Shown one piece after another: positions 16,913 to 61,604 of a DNA stretch of 64,000 nt. The stretch spans positions 81,345-145,344 of the forward strand of contig CAYFJW010000001.1 of the NCBI GenBank assembly GCA_964343875.1. Reading direction: 5' to 3'. The position numbers were made by a program, and so were the translations under genes. Positions within the stretch are counted from its first letter, which is position 1, and each line of letters starts with the position of its first letter. The notes beneath the pieces were generated by a model. The model was not told the origin of the DNA. It saw nothing but the letters and a program-made list of their open reading frames with translations, and made no database searches. Origin of the DNA: Candidatus Woesearchaeota archaeon. GTDB taxonomy: Archaea > Nanobdellota > Nanobdellia > SCGC-AAA011-G17 > UBA489.

Positions 16913-19900
16913 CTAAATTCCTGTCTTAGCAACAGGTCCAGCTAGATCCTCAGAAATCACATCTACAACGCTCTCAATGACTCCTGAGCCTCCAGAACCG
17001 CCGTCTAAGCCCATTCCCTCAGTCTTCTCCAAGCAAATGACTCTAACTTCTTCATAGTCAAGAGTAATCTGGGTCGATAGTTCGGCTTTATTTCCTACAA
17101 CAACTTTTTCAGTCTTTGTAGGTCTAACACTTTCCCAAGAATTTATTTCAGTGATTATTGGCCAAGCCTGATTAATATAGTCGTTCCATGTTGCTCCAGG
17201 TGTGCTGTGGATATTATCAATCATTGGTTGCAATAAAGCCTGAATCTCTGGTTCAACATCGTCATGGTAAGGGTTTCCGTCTTCATGCCCAATCTTATAA
17301 GTTGTATACAACCAAGCACTTACATCTGTTGGTAAATTCTTTGCAGTTAGTTTTATTGTTGCACTTTTACCTGCCCTGTCAAAGTTAACACCATACCAAC
17401 AATAACTAGTTCCTTCCTGATTCCTAACAGTAAATGCACGAACAGTATCTTCTTCATTTAAGTCATCATCAACCATCAACGTTCCAGGCGCATCATGTAA
17501 TAGCTTAGATAACCAGAACACTGGTTTGTATACTCCACTTCTATCAATCATGTTTTCATCCCATCCAAGAAATCTTCCCTGTATTGTTCCGGGTTCATGA
17601 ACATTACTATAGAGTTGGAACCAACCCGCACGGTCTATATCATAATTAGCACTATTTGCAAGCAAAGCCATTGTACTTGAAACAGCATGTATGCCATCGC
17701 CATTGATCATTGGCTTACCGGGCAGACCATCACTAAACTCGTCCATATTTGTTCCTAAAAATGCACCATTATTTGCCCGCCAATGCTCAAGCGCCTGCTC
17801 CGGATCCCCCCCAGGAGTCATTGTATAGGGGTCAGGGTTGTAGTGGTGGTAGTGATGTGTTGCCTTTAGACCCTTAGCATCAAGAGCTTCAAAGACCTCA
17901 ATCGGTACATAGACTTTAGTTCCATTCTCTGAATTTAAAGTACCAAAGAATGCAGAAGTCCCATCAACTCCGACCTCATTACTCGGATCAACCTCATAAA
18001 CCGCCTCAACACCTGCAACCGTTAAATCAACAAATTCTTCCATTGTTGGCCACCAACAATCTCCAGGCGCCTTACAAACTTCCTTCCAATTCTCAACGAC
18101 AAAGTTTGGCTCATTCCATATTATGAAGTACTTGATCCCCTTTGAATTGTAATGTCTTACTACATCCTTAACATAATCTTTCCATGCTTGCATGTCCTTT
18201 GCAGGACCACTTGATTCATAAGTAACACATTCTGTACCAACAAAATCCGAACAATAAGCAATACCTTCTTCTGAAGGAATCCCTTTTATAACAACCATTA
18301 CTTTTGCGCCATTCTTCTGGAGTTTAGTGTGCACTCTGGTGGGAGGGAAACCTCTCTCATACCTATCAAATCTGTGCCCAGTCCTTACATGTATTCCCTC
18401 AACCCCAACCTCATTAATATAAGCATCTAAAAACTTAGGATGCATAAATGGCCCAATAACATTTCCAAAACCTTTAGTTAATCCATGAACATCCTTAACA
18501 ACTTGATCGGTATAAACATTCATCTCAAACTCTTTATCTCCCCCAGGTTCTACCTCAATAAACTCCCTCTCTTCTCCACCAATAATGCCTACACTCCCAG
18601 GCCCGCCCTCGCAAGGCTCGTAACCTGTCTCAAATCCATAGGACTGGAATTCCTCCAAACTCATCTCTTTTGTGTAATAGATAGTGGGGTTATCCACACA
18701 ATAAGTATTGCCACTTATGACAAGCCCATCTTTTGAATCTTCATGTAAATTAAGAAGTCTTTCAGTATTAATATTATCCTCGAAATTGTTTCTTATCAAA
18801 ATATTCTTAGCACCAACCCTATTGTTTCCATCAATCGTAGCATGCACACCAATTGCAACATCCACATCACTGATTGTATTCTCCTCAATACTACAATCAT
18901 GACACCCTTCAACACCTATTGAGCCCTTGTATCTATAAGTTCCATCCAAGGTTATCCTTTCAAAAACGTTTCTAATTGCATGAACGTTAGTTGCAACGGG
19001 ATCAACTCCAGCAGTTCCAGCCCAATTATTCCAACAACAACCGCCAAGTATCAATGCATGATTTCTCACAATCAAATCATGGAAATAGTTGTCAATATAA
19101 TAAACACCGCTAGCACCACCCTTCGCCCAAGAAACAGCACCGGGATCACGTACACTTAAAGAGTCATCATGGAACTCATTCTGTATTATCCATGCACCAT
19201 TAACACCAAATGCATCAACACTTTCACCTTCACCAGCAATGTTAAAAAATTCATTCCTATAAATTAAAACATTTGCAGATTCAGTTGTAGTTTTAATTCC
19301 ATCTTCGTATGCCTCACTTATCTTATTATTATAAACAACCAGATGGTCAGCAATATCTCTATCCCAGATAGTCATACAAACTCTGATGTAGCATCTAATA
19401 TCAAAGCCTTCAAGAGTTGTATACTTTCCGCCAAAATGGATCTTTCCGTCATTATGTCTGGCCTCCATAATCACATCCTCGCCCTCGTAAGCAAAGATCC
19501 TGATAGGCTTATCAGAAGTCCCTTGGAACTTTGCAGTAACACCTCCTTCATCTAGGATATAAGTTCCAGCCCCAACTGCAATAGCCTCACCGGCAACAAC
19601 GTCATACTTCTTCATTGCCTTCAATGTCGCACATGGACCATCAGCACCACTAATATACCGTGGGTACAAACAATTATTATCATCACTTGCCCCTTGTTCG
19701 TTCTGAGCAATGTAATATATTTTTTCAGGCTCAAAATTAAGCATATCTAAAAACTCTTGCGGAACATCGGAAGAATGTCCTCCGCCAACATCCAACATCC
19801 AACCTTCTCCATCACCACTTACCTCTTCTCCTTCAACAGTTTCAGGATCATCAACTAAACCAAAGAACCTAAAGGGAAAACTAAAGAAATTATCTACTCT

Positions 19901-20344
19901 TTTTGCAATAACCTCAATAAATGTTGTTCCTTCATTCCTTTCAATCTTTTTAGGGGTTATTTTCACCGGCTGAACTTTCTTAATGAGTGTATCATCTTTT
20001 AGAATCTTTTTTTCCTTTGGAACAATACCAAAACCACTTTCTACCTCATCAAATATTTCCTCAACAACAGTGTTTGGTGCATCGTCAACAGTTACATCAT
20101 CAACTACAGGAGGAACAGTCTTTACTTCAGGAACCTTGCTCCTTTGATAATCATCGATTTTAGCAATATCATCACCACAAAGAGTCACCCACTTACTCTC
20201 TTCTTCATACCAAACGGTTTTACATTCAACAAAGGAATCATCCGAGGCACCGCCAACACTACTAAAATCAGAGACAGCTCCAACCACGAACACGCTAGAT
20301 AAAAAAACTAAGCACAAAAGTAGTATGTTCTTCAGTCGGATCAC
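16913..20344 (-). CDS. Large secreted multidomain protein: right-handed parallel beta-helix domain plus clan GH-A (TIM-barrel) glycoside-hydrolase-like domain
   Basis: 1143 aa with signal peptide MIRLKNILLLCLVFLSSVFVVGAVS. Beta-helix repeats (NNKISEAYEDGIK...IYRNEFFNIAGEGESVDAFGVNGAWIIQNEFHDD). A YFIIWNEPNF motif is typical of GH-A acid/base glutamate. Confidence 0.55.
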   Translation of the reverse strand: MIRLKNILLLCLVFLSSVFVVGAVSDFSSVGGASDDSFVECKTVWYEEESKWVTLCGDDIAKIDDYQRSKVPEVKTVPPVVDDVTVDDAPNTVVEEIFDEVESGFGIVPKEKKILKDDTLIKKVQPVKITPKKIERNEGTTFIEVIAKRVDNFFSFPFRFFGLVDDPETVEGEEVSGDGEGWMLDVGGGHSSDVPQEFLDMLNFEPEKIYYIAQNEQGASDDNNCLYPRYISGADGPCATLKAMKKYDVVAGEAIAVGAGTYILDEGGVTAKFQGTSDKPIRIFAYEGEDVIMEARHNDGKIHFGGKYTTLEGFDIRCYIRVCMTIWDRDIADHLVVYNNKISEAYEDGIKTTTESANVLIYRNEFFNIAGEGESVDAFGVNGAWIIQNEFHDDSLSVRDPGAVSWAKGGASGVYYIDNYFHDLIVRNHALILGGCCWNNWAGTAGVDPVATNVHAIRNVFERITLDGTYRYKGSIGVEGCHDCSIEENTISDVDVAIGVHATIDGNNRVGAKNILIRNNFEDNINTERLLNLHEDSKDGLVISGNTYCVDNPTIYYTKEMSLEEFQSYGFETGYEPCEGGPGSVGIIGGEEREFIEVEPGGDKEFEMNVYTDQVVKDVHGLTKGFGNVIGPFMHPKFLDAYINEVGVEGIHVRTGHRFDRYERGFPPTRVHTKLQKNGAKVMVVIKGIPSEEGIAYCSDFVGTECVTYESSGPAKDMQAWKDYVKDVVRHYNSKGIKYFIIWNEPNFVVENWKEVCKAPGDCWWPTMEEFVDLTVAGVEAVYEVDPSNEVGVDGTSAFFGTLNSENGTKVYVPIEVFEALDAKGLKATHHYHHYNPDPYTMTPGGDPEQALEHWRANNGAFLGTNMDEFSDGLPGKPMINGDGIHAVSSTMALLANSANYDIDRAGWFQLYSNVHEPGTIQGRFLGWDENMIDRSGVYKPVFWLSKLLHDAPGTLMVDDDLNEEDTVRAFTVRNQEGTSYCWYGVNFDRAGKSATIKLTAKNLPTDVSAWLYTTYKIGHEDGNPYHDDVEPEIQALLQPMIDNIHSTPGATWNDYINQAWPIITEINSWESVRPTKTEKVVVGNKAELSTQITLDYEEVRVICLEKTEGMGLDGGSGGSGVIESVVDVISEDLAGPVAKTGI

Positions 20345-25517: not shown

Positions 25518-25949
25518 ATGAACCTTAAGAACCATTTTTTTACATCAATAATTTTAACAGTTATAATGTACTTCTTTGTAAGTTGGTATGCAATCTGGGC
25601 TTTTGTTGGAGGCTACCTAATTGACTTTGACCATTACCTCTGGTCCCTTTACACAACAAGAAGTTTTTCTATAAAAAAATCCTATAATGCCCATTACGGT
25701 AGACATAAAAAAGACGATTATGAAAGAGACCTACTCCACATCTTCCACACATGGGAATTCTGGTTAGTAATGGTTGCAGGAGCAATTGGTTCATACTTGG
25801 CAGGATTAAAATTCTTCTATTACATGTTCGCAATAACATTCTTGGGGATGGCAATGCATCTAGCAATGGACTTCAAAGACCTACACAAAATGAAACATTT
25901 TGATGCCAGAGCAATTTCCTTCTTCGCATGGCTTAATAGAAGAAAATAA
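25518..25949 (+). CDS. Hypothetical small membrane protein (His-rich)
   Basis: Three predicted TM segments. I recognise no family. Confidence 0.4.
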   Translation: MNLKNHFFTSIILTVIMYFFVSWYAIWAFVGGYLIDFDHYLWSLYTTRSFSIKKSYNAHYGRHKKDDYERDLLHIFHTWEFWLVMVAGAIGSYLAGLKFFYYMFAITFLGMAMHLAMDFKDLHKMKHFDARAISFFAWLNRRK

Positions 25950-26023
25950 TGCCCCCAGAGGGACTTGAACCCGCGATCTCCAGCTTATGAGACTGGCGAT
26001 TTAGCCAACTAATCTACAGGGGC
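25950..26023 (-). tRNA. tRNA-Met (anticodon CAT; could be elongator Met or Ile2)
   Basis: Cloverleaf GCCCCTG / D-arm / anticodon loop CTCATAA / T-arm GTTCAAGTCC / TGGGGGC plus A73. No encoded CCA. Coordinates may be off by 1 nt. Confidence 0.8.
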
Positions 26024-26069
26024 ATCCTTGATATAAGATCCAGAGATGTAATTTAAAAGACTTATGGTG

Positions 26070-40680: not shown

Positions 40681-40833
40681 CACAAAAACCTTTAACTTTT
40701 TCTTAATGTTTTAGTGATAACTCATAAAATATGATCTAACATATAAACAGAAAACTATTTAAGGAAAAATACATCTAAAAATTGCAGGACACCCAATTCA
40801 TTGTCCTTATCATATACGAATGAACGAATAAAA

Positions 40834-40840
40834 GAGGTGA
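40834..40840 (+). promoter_or_regulatory. Shine-Dalgarno-like GAGGTGA, 7 nt upstream of the ATG at 40848
   Basis: It is complementary to the 16S 3' end CCUCC. This supports frame B of the overlapping repeat ORFs. Confidence 0.5.
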
Positions 40841-40847
40841 AAAAGAA

Positions 40848-41090
40848 ATGGTTGCAAGAAGAAGAACAGCAAGAAAAACTACTAGAAGAAGAAAAACTAC
40901 TGCTAGGAAAACTACTAGAAGAAGAAAAACTACTGCTAGGAAAACTACTAGAAGAAGAAAAACTACTGCTAGGAAAACTACTAGAAGAAGAAAGACAGCT
41001 GCAAAGACAACAACTCGAAGAAGAACTAGAAGAAGGAAAACCGCTGCAAAGACAACAACTAGAAGAAGAGTTAGAAGAAGGAGACGTTAA
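40848..41090 (+). CDS. Tandem-repeat-encoded ultra-basic Arg/Thr/Lys-rich protein (80 aa)
   Basis: Encoded by three perfect 33-bp repeats (TTARKTTRRRK) and two ~45-bp repeats. Strong SD and ATG. A second frame (TTG at 40801) stays open through the same repeats. Confidence 0.5.
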   Translation: MVARRRTARKTTRRRKTTARKTTRRRKTTARKTTRRRKTTARKTTRRRKTAAKTTTRRRTRRRKTAAKTTTRRRVRRRRR

Positions 41091-41114
41091 GTCTCTTTCA
41101 ACTTTTTTTAATTT

Positions 41115-41762
41115 CTAAATATTTATTACAATTCCGCTATCACCTGGGTTAATTAATTTACTCCCATTAATACTATCTCTCTTAAGGAAAGTTTCATGAA
41201 AATGCCCAGAAGCAAAAACTTTCGGTTTTAAAGTCTCAATGGCCTTCCTAACACTTTTAGACCCCCTGTGCCCCAAAAGAGGCAATTCATCTAGCTTGGT
41301 TTCATAAGGAGGGGCATGTGTAAATAAAACCAGTTTACCTTTTATTTTTGGTTTCAAATTACTAACCCATACATCAAACTGTTTGTTTGTTTCATCAAAA
41401 CCGCCACCACCATAACCTGCAAATGTTACACCATCAATTGTTAAACACTTCTTGTGTAGAAAAACAACTTGTTCACCATCACACAACTTCTTCAATTCAG
41501 AACCACTTTCGTGATTCCCATGTATAACCAATAACTTTTTACCAGCCTTTTTAATCATATCAATTGCTTCTTCCAATCCGGAACCAAAGAAACTCAAATC
41601 ACCGCAACAAACCATCAAATCACATTCCTTACTCTTCTCAACAATAACACTAACTTTCTTTTCTAGTTCTTCAACATCTGTGACATAATACTCATCAGAA
41701 CTCTCCCCAGAGTGTACATCGGTGAAAAATAATACCTTCATCCAATGCAGACTACAAAACAC
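41115..41762 (-). CDS. Calcineurin-like metallophosphoesterase
   Basis: Motifs FFTDVHSG, CCGDL, GNHE and SGHFHE. Confidence 0.8.
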   Translation of the reverse strand: MFCSLHWMKVLFFTDVHSGESSDEYYVTDVEELEKKVSVIVEKSKECDLMVCCGDLSFFGSGLEEAIDMIKKAGKKLLVIHGNHESGSELKKLCDGEQVVFLHKKCLTIDGVTFAGYGGGGFDETNKQFDVWVSNLKPKIKGKLVLFTHAPPYETKLDELPLLGHRGSKSVRKAIETLKPKVFASGHFHETFLKRDSINGSKLINPGDSGIVINI

Positions 41763-47806: not shown

Positions 47807-48310
47807 ATGGGGGGAGCACGAAAAGGATTGGTAGCACTGACAGCAGCACTATTTGGAAGCCTGCCATTAGCTTGCCAAAGAGATGCAGATTACAATCTTC
47901 AAAATTTTCTTTCAAAAAGACCAACCGGCACTGCAATTGTAGCATATCCCACAGGAACACAGTTAGTAGGTGAAACGCCAGTTCCACCAACACACGCAAC
48001 AAATCTTAGAAATAGGTTAAAAGAAAGCGGAATGACTACTCACCTAAGGGCCGTTCCAAATGGTCAGTTCAAAAGAGGCCTATTGCTTGACCATAACACA
48101 GAACCAGCAGGACCAAATCTTAGCATATTCTATGTTGATTCAGATAGGATTACTGAGACTCATGAACTAAATGGATTAGAAAGCGTAGCCAATACTTACT
48201 CAGGTGTTGGAACAAGCACAACAGTTTACACACTCGCACCAGCAGAAGATGGAGGGTTTTCTAGATTTGAAAATCTGCTAGAAAGAAAAGGTTACATAGG
48301 GGGAAACTAA
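47807..48310 (+). CDS. Hypothetical protein (GC-richer, Gly/Thr/Arg-rich; possibly foreign)
   Basis: 167-aa ORF with atypical composition. The TATA-like ctatttatt ends about 24 nt upstream of the ATG, suggesting a leaderless transcript. Confidence 0.35.
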   Translation: MGGARKGLVALTAALFGSLPLACQRDADYNLQNFLSKRPTGTAIVAYPTGTQLVGETPVPPTHATNLRNRLKESGMTTHLRAVPNGQFKRGLLLDHNTEPAGPNLSIFYVDSDRITETHELNGLESVANTYSGVGTSTTVYTLAPAEDGGFSRFENLLERKGYIGGN

Positions 48311-48536
48311 AATTAAAACAAAAATACTAACACTGCTAGCCACAATTGTTTTTTTATCTTTTTTTGTACAAGAAGTAAACGCACAATATGACATAACAGA
48401 TGAATCATTCGTACCATTAAGTTCTGAAGATTGCGGTAACAAAAGAGAAGATTGCGCATATGCGACATTCACCGGGGCATTAATCTCTCTAAATGACACT
48501 GAGGTCGGAACTAATGTTACGGAGATCGTAGACAGA

Positions 48537-49121
48537 ATGAAGAATCTGAGTACATATCCGCTAGCCCCCACCTTTAATGGAACAATCAATATTACAGCCT
48601 TCATATGGAATGAAAGTGGGACCAATAACACGCTCGTTGTAACCAACTTCACAATTGGAAATGCGTCCAACCCCTCCCCAAATAGACCAAACACAACAAC
48701 AATCAGAGACGCCTTAACAGACGGACAACCCACATTAGTTGGTGCTGTAGTCTACAACGAAACCACAGGAGTAGCTATCACAGGCCACATGGTTAGGATT
48801 GTAGCAATCAACATAACTCCGAGATTAGTGAATGATTCAAGGGGAGTTACTCATGCAATGACGCCAGTCTTAGTTTATGATCCATACTACAATGTAACCT
48901 GGCCAACAGAAATTGATGAACCTATAACTCCAGGAACCCCTGCTGTTCCATTCATCCCGATATTTGGTAAGTGGGGTGTATTAGAGGACCAAGCATCCTT
49001 CAAGGCAATTACGCCACCAAGTCCCCCCTTTACAAAATTCCCAAAACCACCTGAACCACCTCCGCCAAAGAAGGAACCCAATATTGCAATAACGCCTAAT
49101 GGTGACCCACCAAGGATCTAA
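48537..49121 (+). CDS. Hypothetical secreted, sequon-rich and Pro-rich protein. The frame is open from 48300, and a signal peptide is encoded upstream of the first ATG.
   Basis: About 11 NxS/T sequons and a Pro-rich tail PPSPPFTKFPKPPEPPPPKK. The in-frame upstream segment IKTKILTLLATIVFLSFFVQEVNA-QY (from ATT at 48312) looks like a signal peptide but lacks ATG, GTG or TTG. Confidence 0.4.
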   Translation: MKNLSTYPLAPTFNGTINITAFIWNESGTNNTLVVTNFTIGNASNPSPNRPNTTTIRDALTDGQPTLVGAVVYNETTGVAITGHMVRIVAINITPRLVNDSRGVTHAMTPVLVYDPYYNVTWPTEIDEPITPGTPAVPFIPIFGKWGVLEDQASFKAITPPSPPFTKFPKPPEPPPPKKEPNIAITPNGDPPRI

Positions 49122-49136
49122 TTTAATTCTTTTTTA

Positions 49137-49165
49137 GGGCAGAAATTGCCCCTTAGCATTTTTTA
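49137..49165 (+). terminator. GC hairpin (GGGCAGAAATTGCCCC) followed by a T-run
   Basis: Stem-loop plus TTTTTT, 3' of the 48537 gene and 5' of rpl1. It may be a terminator or part of an rpl1 leader. Confidence 0.3.
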
Positions 49166-61373: not shown

Positions 61374-61430
61374 GCTAAAAGCTTATTTCTCTTTTCTTAT
61401 TTTTTATTTAATTCTAGTTAGAACTCTAAG

Positions 61431-61504
61431 AGGCACTGGCAGGATTCGAACCTGCGAAATAACCGCTCTGCAGGCGGTCCCCTTAACCACTTGGGCACAG
61501 TGCC
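61431..61504 (-). tRNA. tRNA-Cys (anticodon GCA)
   Basis: GGCACTG/CAGTGCC acceptor, anticodon stem ACCGC/GCGGT with loop CTGCAGA, T-arm GGTTCGAATCC, discriminator U73 (Cys identity element). Confidence 0.8.
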
Positions 61505-61506
61505 AG

Positions 61507-61604
61507 CGGACCCGATAGGATTTGAACCTACGACCTTCTGCTCACTTCTGAGTCCGAAGACTTAATAGAAGGCAGACGCTCTATCCAAACTGAGCTACGG
61601 GCCC
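61507..61604 (-). tRNA. tRNA-Arg (anticodon TCT) with a ~23-nt canonical-position intron
   Basis: GGGCCCG acceptor (G3:U70), D-arm GCTCAGTTTGGATAGAGC, anticodon stem TCTGC...GCAGA. The mature loop is CTTCTAA after removal of TTAAGTCTTCGGACTCAGAAGTG. The intron pairs with the anticodon in a BHB-like arrangement. The gene lies 2 nt from tRNA-Cys. Confidence 0.65.

Follow-up and report, generated by a model that had tools for sequence, protein, structure and literature searches.

Where does translation begin in a gene whose reading frame encodes a signal peptide with no ATG, GTG or TTG to start it? The question is raised by one locus in a 64,000-nucleotide stretch of DNA from a Candidatus Woesearchaeota archaeon (hereafter the window, meaning the whole of the stretch analysed), in which the public annotation begins a protein at an internal Met codon. 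A sequence-only reading had reported that the frame of this ORF (48537-49121) is open back to 48300, and that a signal peptide is encoded from an ATT codon (48312-48314) just after the stop of the upstream gene; it left three options: rare initiation at AUU, an ATG misread as ATT, or a recently inactivated start. The first of these is supported by the evidence set out below and the other two are refuted. Two possibilities that the reading had left unconsidered – a +1 frameshift that fuses the two ORFs, and termination-reinitiation – are weighed here as well.

The junction in the window and in related lineages

Both observations hold on direct reading of the sequence. TAA at 48308-48310 is the stop of the upstream ORF (47807-48310), a lone spacer base follows (48311), and next to it stands the ATT, in frame with ATG 48537 and separated from it by 225 nt (75 codons). 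A TAG at 48297-48299 closes the frame, which is open from 48300 on; over 48300-48536 neither the ORF list nor direct reading reveals an in-frame ATG, GTG or TTG, and 48537 is the first canonical start. The in-frame Met that the earlier reading placed at 48459 does not stand: the ATG in question (48460-48462) straddles the codons TAT and GCG and is not in frame.

An open stretch of 79 codons has a chance probability of ~0.004 given the base composition, and the 79 codons from the preceding stop to the first canonical start are the maximum among the ~75 ORFs of the window. No second ORF with an unexplained long 5' extension devoid of a canonical start was found among the window ORFs. Depletion of start codons over the first 75-161 codons was considered as a signal in its own right and dropped: runs free of ATG, GTG and TTG reach 216 codons inside other genes of the window, and a 75-codon run is thus not unusual alone.

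Features of the locus, with positions in the window
Feature	Positions	Strand	Basis or remark
BRE/TATA-like element GAAAGCTATTTATTCTAAA	47770-47788	+	near-invariant block in the four-lineage alignment A4
First cistron, lipobox-type secreted protein, 167 aa (MGGARKGLVALTAALFGSLPLAC...)	47807-48310	+	ORF list; syntenic orthologues in L001, L002 and L007
Shine-Dalgarno-like AGGGGGA	48298-48304	+	in the 3' end of the first cistron (Gly-Gly codons); 7 nt upstream of ATT
Proposed start codon ATT	48312-48314	+	only near-cognate codon common to all four lineages
Gene as proposed, 269 codons	48312-49121	+	replaces 48537-49121
Signal peptide, 24 codons	48312-48383	+	(M/I)KTK - ILTLLATIVFLSFFV - QEVNA; predicted cleavage before Gln25
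Mature secreted protein (predicted), 245 aa plus stop	48384-49121	+	14 N-X-S/T sequons; conserved Cys...His...Asp
Internal Met76 codon	48537-48539	+	start in the public annotation (194-aa model P0002); Leu in L001 (CTA) and L007
T-rich tract with a small GGGCA/TGCCC hairpin and two T6 runs	49127-49165	+	directly after the stop at 49121

The window is a dense, AT-rich archaeal segment (36.7% GC) whose genes include those for the L1-L10-L12 ribosomal proteins, SecY/Sec61, class I LysRS and the primase small subunit. The LysRS shares 87% identity with its counterpart in a Candidatus Woesearchaeota MAG, and its remaining hits are without exception to Woesearchaeota or Nanoarchaeota, which places the source among the DPANN archaea of this group. 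Several of its other features deserve record. A 105-codon ORF at 40801-41118 (+ strand) has TTG as its sole candidate start, with no ATG in its 123-codon open frame. On the - strand, a 1143-aa ORF with no Pfam match (16913-20344) has a GTG start two codons after a stop, a TTTATAAA box just upstream of that GTG and its first ATG 184 codons further on; the probable product is a large surface protein whose translation starts at the GTG. Ribosomal protein L10/P0 (49942-51189), at 415 aa, is unusually long for an archaeal P0 and carries a repetitive Lys/Glu/Pro-rich tail of ~150 residues after the conserved domains. Rfam matches in the window are to tRNAs only, with no 16S rRNA and no known RNA element at the junction; one of them, a 98-nt match on the - strand (61507-61604) that adjoins tRNA-Cys (61430-61504) and is not reported by ARAGORN, is probably an intron-containing archaeal tRNA. 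The tRNA-Met at 25949-26024 was considered as a possible initiator and set aside: with a G1:C72 pair, and without the GGG/CCC anticodon stem, it is an elongator and irrelevant to initiation.

A homologue search yielded three more syntenic lineages: L001 (ENA ERZ24794642), L002/L003 (Logan SRR31802807/04) and L007/L008 (ENA ERZ24794644/45). All come from ENA and Logan assemblies; scans with the single protein returned no relatives from contigs of GTDB genomes or of JGI metagenomes. The shared gene order is methyltransferase, lipobox ORF, target gene, L1, L10, and the sole break in synteny among the four lineages is an adenine glycosylase gene (PF03352; L007:2507-3070) inserted between the target gene and L1 in L007/L008. 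Nucleotide identity among the window and the three lineages is 73-79% in the target gene and 82-89% in the ribosomal protein genes, values which indicate that the lineages are different species.

The arrangement TAA-N-ATT is found in four of four lineages, with a spacer of +1 nt in each. The codons that follow ATT without an in-frame canonical start number 72 in L002 and 161 in L007. In L001 the frame contains a GTG and an ATG upstream of the ATT, both within the upstream gene; since in the window a TAG closes this frame four codons ahead of the ATT, these are best seen as lineage-specific accidents.

The predicted product and the signals that precede it

Translation from the ATT gives IKTKILTLLATIVFLSFFVQEVNA, followed after the predicted cleavage site by QYDITDE. 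The peptide is tripartite: the n-region contains two Lys, the core consists of 15 hydrophobic residues (Kyte-Doolittle mean 2.7) and positions -3 to -1 are V-N-A. Judged by inspection, the n/h/c layout and the small residues at -3 and -1 agree with what Sec signal peptidase I requires, and the cleavage site (xNA before QYD) is kept in all four lineages. Residues 25-75 of the proposed protein include QYDITDESFVPLSSEDCGNK. The 14 sequons compare with 3.2 +/- 1.6 in shuffled sequences and occupy the same positions in orthologues; two of them precede Met76. Archaeal N-glycosylation occurs on the outer face of the membrane. A protein with 14 positionally conserved sequons would thus be exported, and would need its signal peptide: on sequence grounds these features imply an exported, N-glycosylated surface protein.

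The family to which it belongs is confined, in an exhaustive HMMER search, to DPANN-type MAGs, with source names that include Pacearchaeota and Nanoarchaeota. Pfam scans of all family members and a profile search of PDB sequences gave chance-level matches only, and in neither was there similarity of the product to initiation factors; an AlphaFold2 model built on 12 aligned sequences was too poor to use (mean pLDDT 39, pTM 0.26). Conserved residues include Cys41/Cys48 (48432-48455), the motif GHMVRIVAI (about 48780-48800) and YDP (about 48880-48890). With Cys at a predicted helix start, His in a predicted beta-strand and Asp in YDP, they may recall papain-like or transglutaminase-like Cys-His-Asp folds, a likeness drawn from motif order and from the secondary structure of a model with pLDDT 39, and one that no database match accompanies. 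The family occurs both fused and split. It is one protein in the window (48312-49121), in L009 (3001-4203) and in L014 (2501-3655); in Pacearchaeota and Nanoarchaeota relatives (L010:2552-3896, L012:2495-3931) it is divided between two neighbouring genes that are tightly coupled and encode a signal peptide apiece, the N-part (~100 aa) bearing the conserved Cys and the C-part (~200 aa) the conserved His and YDP.

All distant family members begin with Met, and the signal peptide follows at once. In alignment A2 the Ile1 of the window shares a column with Met1 of P0005, P0007, P0010, P0011 and P0012, and the DNA of L009-L014 has ATG at the codon homologous to the ATT. A lipobox-type gene immediately precedes the family member in L009, L010, L012 and L014. 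Relative to the stop of the upstream lipobox gene, the distant ATG lies at -8 nt in L014, -4 in L010/L011, -1 in L009 and +2 in L012/L013, the overlaps of -4 and -1 taking the classic forms ATGA and TAATG; an SD-like GAGG or GGGGG is present within the last codons of the lipobox gene. That the lipobox gene and the ATG abut or overlap in these distant loci indicates that the coupled pair is ancestral and that ATT is a derived replacement in the clade of the window. The distant loci have a neighbourhood of their own: in L010 (1-1664) and L012 (1-1382) the cassette of lipoprotein, N-domain and C-domain adjoins a gene for a T2SSE-type ATPase (of the type IV pilus or archaellum-like kind) and two small ORFs, a neighbourhood absent from the window. 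This context hints at a cell-surface apparatus.

In the window the ATT is preceded by signals of two kinds. The first is the AGGGGGA in the last codons of the upstream gene, which forms a duplex of -9.0 kcal/mol with an assumed generic archaeal anti-SD; this pairing strength ranks in the top 1.8% of random positions and in the top 10% of gene starts in the window, where SD motifs occur mostly at operon-internal genes. Its core is GGGGG in three lineages (invariant in alignment A1) and the canonical GGAGG (within GGAGGG) in L007. Since the G-rich motif also encodes a conserved Gly-Gly of the upstream protein, its conservation may be partly coding. From -30 to +40 there is hardly any structure in any of the four lineages (0 to -6 kcal/mol). 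The second signal is the BRE/TATA-like block, situated ~27 nt before the ATG of the upstream gene; no comparable block stands ahead of the ATT. With the promoter-like element before the first cistron only, the target is most likely the second cistron of one transcript. Its spacing, and the usual layout of archaeal promoters, suggest that the block serves as the promoter of a bicistronic transcript with little or no leader. Oligo-T is where archaeal RNA polymerase stops transcription, and the T-rich tract behind the target gene is the probable end of the transcription unit. A bacterial-type terminator scan did not list this tract on the + strand, and such promoter and terminator scans are uninformative for an archaeon.

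The same stretch of sequence could be read in another way. In all four lineages the downstream frame runs open through the G-run (in the window from 48300), an SD-like element stands immediately before the stop codon, the two frames differ by +1, and a G5-G7 homopolymer is present in three lineages. A programmed +1 frameshift, or transcriptional slippage, near the G-run and stop (GGG GGA AAC UAA A) would then fuse both ORFs. The model for such an event is the +1 site of E. coli RF2 (prfB), AGG GGG UAU CUU UGA C, which likewise has an AGGGGG SD-like element before an in-frame stop and a continuing frame at +1. The junction, however, lacks a slippery P-site codon: the codon ahead of the stop varies (AAC, GAC or AAU), re-pairing at the +1 codons ACU and AUU is poor, and the SD spacing is 1 nt rather than the 3 nt of prfB. 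Nor is there a stimulatory structure downstream. In L007 the run is interrupted, such that SD pairing is kept and the homopolymer lost. Distant relatives without exception encode two separate proteins in different frames, each with its own ATG and signal peptide, and the segment after the junction in the window is a complete signal peptide with its conserved cleavage site. In a fusion this peptide would come after a lipoprotein domain already exported and would behave as a stop-transfer anchor, so that the sequon-rich domain stayed in the cytoplasm, out of reach of glycosylation. We therefore regard a fused product as quite improbable.

Selection on the upstream codons and the annotated start

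A further set of observations concerns evolutionary change in the 75 codons between the ATT and the annotated start (48312-48536). In frame 0 dN/dS is 0.08-0.11, with synonymous change near saturation (pS ~0.65); in the other two frames it is 0.6-2.6. Such frame-specific purifying selection means that codons 1-75 are translated and constrained. Synonymous divergence is markedly lower over the signal peptide (24 codons, pS 0.35-0.43) than over codons 25-75 (pS 0.76-0.83), which suggests either an extra constraint on the nucleotides beside the start site or a compositional effect of T-rich hydrophobic codons.

These values bear directly on the annotated start. ATG 48537 is the first canonical start, has a GGAG ~12 nt upstream and was picked by gene callers in two lineages (P0002 and P0003); if it were real, the 75 codons before it would be the untranslated relic of a lost start. 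A relic is not expected to show a dN/dS of about 0.1, confined to one frame, where synonymous sites are saturated, and the earlier suggestion of a recently inactivated start is refuted on the same ground. The Met itself is replaced by Leu in two of the other lineages (in L007 within KLKNIS); the orthologues do not, then, start at the internal Met, the outcome that the sequence-only reading had named as fatal to a start at ATT. Initiation at Met76 would moreover remove the signal peptide, the Cys-containing segment conserved in the family and two sequons, from a product that nonetheless retains 12 conserved sequons, and the region around ATG 48537 is the more structured of the two (-13.8 kcal/mol). 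That translation truly begins there is extremely improbable. As for a sequencing or assembly error (a true ATG, or a canonical start masked by a homopolymer indel), its probability is practically nil as far as assemblies can show, for all that A, T and G homopolymers abound here: assemblies made independently from SRR22722179, ERR2281804 and ERR2281805 agree at every one of 311 nt around the junction, and TAA-N-ATT recurs in the three other lineages, which come from other samples.

How, then, did the ATT come to be shared? The four lineages probably inherited one ancestral change from ATG to ATT, a single event followed by retention; the change would date to an ancestor common to at least four Woesearchaeota lineages of species rank. 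Exact retention of ATT was considered as a sign of selection on the codon itself and dropped: among columns that are Ile in all four lineages, 33 of 74 (45%) keep one identical codon. What we claim is long tolerance of AUU by a gene under purifying selection, and not a preference for AUU over AUG.

A consequence follows for annotation. ATT is not considered by standard gene callers, and the public models of the four orthologues begin elsewhere: those of 194 and 192 aa at an internal Met, that of 108 aa at a Met further on, and that of 287 aa at a GTG within the upstream gene. All four have the wrong N-terminus, in three different ways. With the signal peptide lost or buried in every one of them, the protein would be wrongly taken for a cytoplasmic one; the proposed correction is to re-draw the gene, as that of a secreted protein, from the ATT.

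Proposed mechanism and comparison with known systems

Initiation at AUU on the second cistron of a bicistronic mRNA, aided by the SD element and/or by termination-reinitiation, is in our judgement the likely reading, supported by an ATT that is present in four diverged lineages, aligns with the Met1 of distant relatives and lies 7 nt from an SD element. Coding status, absence of a canonical start, conservation of ATT and SD, and homology of ATT to Met1 are direct observations; from them we infer actual use of the AUU, its decoding as Met, co-transcription, coupling, export and glycosylation. A two-gene transcript would arise from the conserved promoter upstream of the lipoprotein-like gene (47807-48310). 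The AGGGGGA in the final codons of the first cistron would position the small subunit, and AUU 48312-48314, read by initiator Met-tRNA, would start the second cistron. A ribosome that has just terminated at the adjacent UAA may re-use the site, and reinitiation of this kind may assist de novo SD-dependent initiation or stand in for it. The product would then be exported by way of its N-terminal Sec signal peptide, cut after VNA and heavily N-glycosylated outside the cell.

How much product such a start would yield is suggested by work on other organisms. In the portion of a review that deals with Sulfolobus solfataricus, AUU is described as discriminated against in vitro by aIF1 (PMC4705826), and the activity of ATT in E. 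coli is given as ~0.3% of that of ATG (Hecht 2017, as cited in PMC10666635). On these grounds output from AUU may be very low. The effect of the ATT is presumably to keep the second protein at a low level, or at one that is strictly coupled. It is conceivable that this is the point of the arrangement, the ATT having been selected so that a weak start, a 1-nt stop-start spacer and an embedded SD together make termination-reinitiation at AUU obligate. Synthesis of the glycoprotein would in that case depend strictly on ribosomes that finish the lipoprotein, and its output would be sensitive to fidelity as controlled by aIF1. We think this unlikely; if true, it would be the first natural case of AUU-dependent translational control in archaea, a counterpart of the logic of bacterial infC.

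The preferred reading, initiation at a tolerated AUU, needs no such control. Translation table 11 lists ATT as a start, and E. coli pcnB is one bacterial gene initiated at AUU. AUU is established as a weak start in bacteria, with infC as an example (PMC4705826). Reconstruction of start-codon changes gave one switch from AUG to AUU among 61,358 reconstructed AUG starts (PMC5622118). In Haloferax, ribosome profiling reported near-cognate candidate sites, which were then set aside (PMC7261190). The literature searched, coverage of which was incomplete, yielded neither a natural AUU start described in archaea nor any account of start-codon peculiarities in DPANN. The rarity of AUU switches, rejection of AUU by aIF1 in vitro and retention of AUU across species in a gene under purifying selection together make the locus a natural test case for near-cognate starts in archaea, and in particular for how far SD pairing and stop-start coupling can offset such a start. 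The scope is that of a single gene and a mechanism of known type; current understanding is not overturned.

Bacterial infC and the window gene alike have a conserved AUU at the initiator position after an SD, a weak start against which a fidelity factor discriminates (PMC4705826). The factor in archaea, however, is aIF1 and not IF3, and the window product is a predicted secreted glycoprotein, with no link to translation and no evident autoregulatory logic of the infC type. A second difference is position: the window start begins 2 nt after the upstream stop, and coupling may take the place of start-codon strength.

In this respect it resembles coupled gene pairs. Spacings of -8 to +6 nt support termination-reinitiation in Haloferax and E. 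coli (PMC10666635). Like the pairs of Haloferax volcanii and E. coli, that of the window lies on one strand, has a spacer (+1 nt) within this range and carries its SD motif inside the last 15 nt of the upstream gene; unlike them, it restarts at ATT and not at ATG or GTG. Sharing the layout of these pairs, the window gene sets its restart on a codon for which we know of no demonstration of reinitiation in archaea. The predicted product, for its part, resembles N-glycosylated archaeal surface proteins with Sec signal peptides, with which it shares a charged n-region, a core of ~15 residues, small residues at -3 and -1 and a sequon-rich domain; it differs from them in belonging to a family with no Pfam or PDB relative. 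Set against these systems, the window gene is likely to be a further case of the rare but accepted class of AUU starts, and would work as an AUU start that is led by an SD, coupled to the preceding stop, or both.
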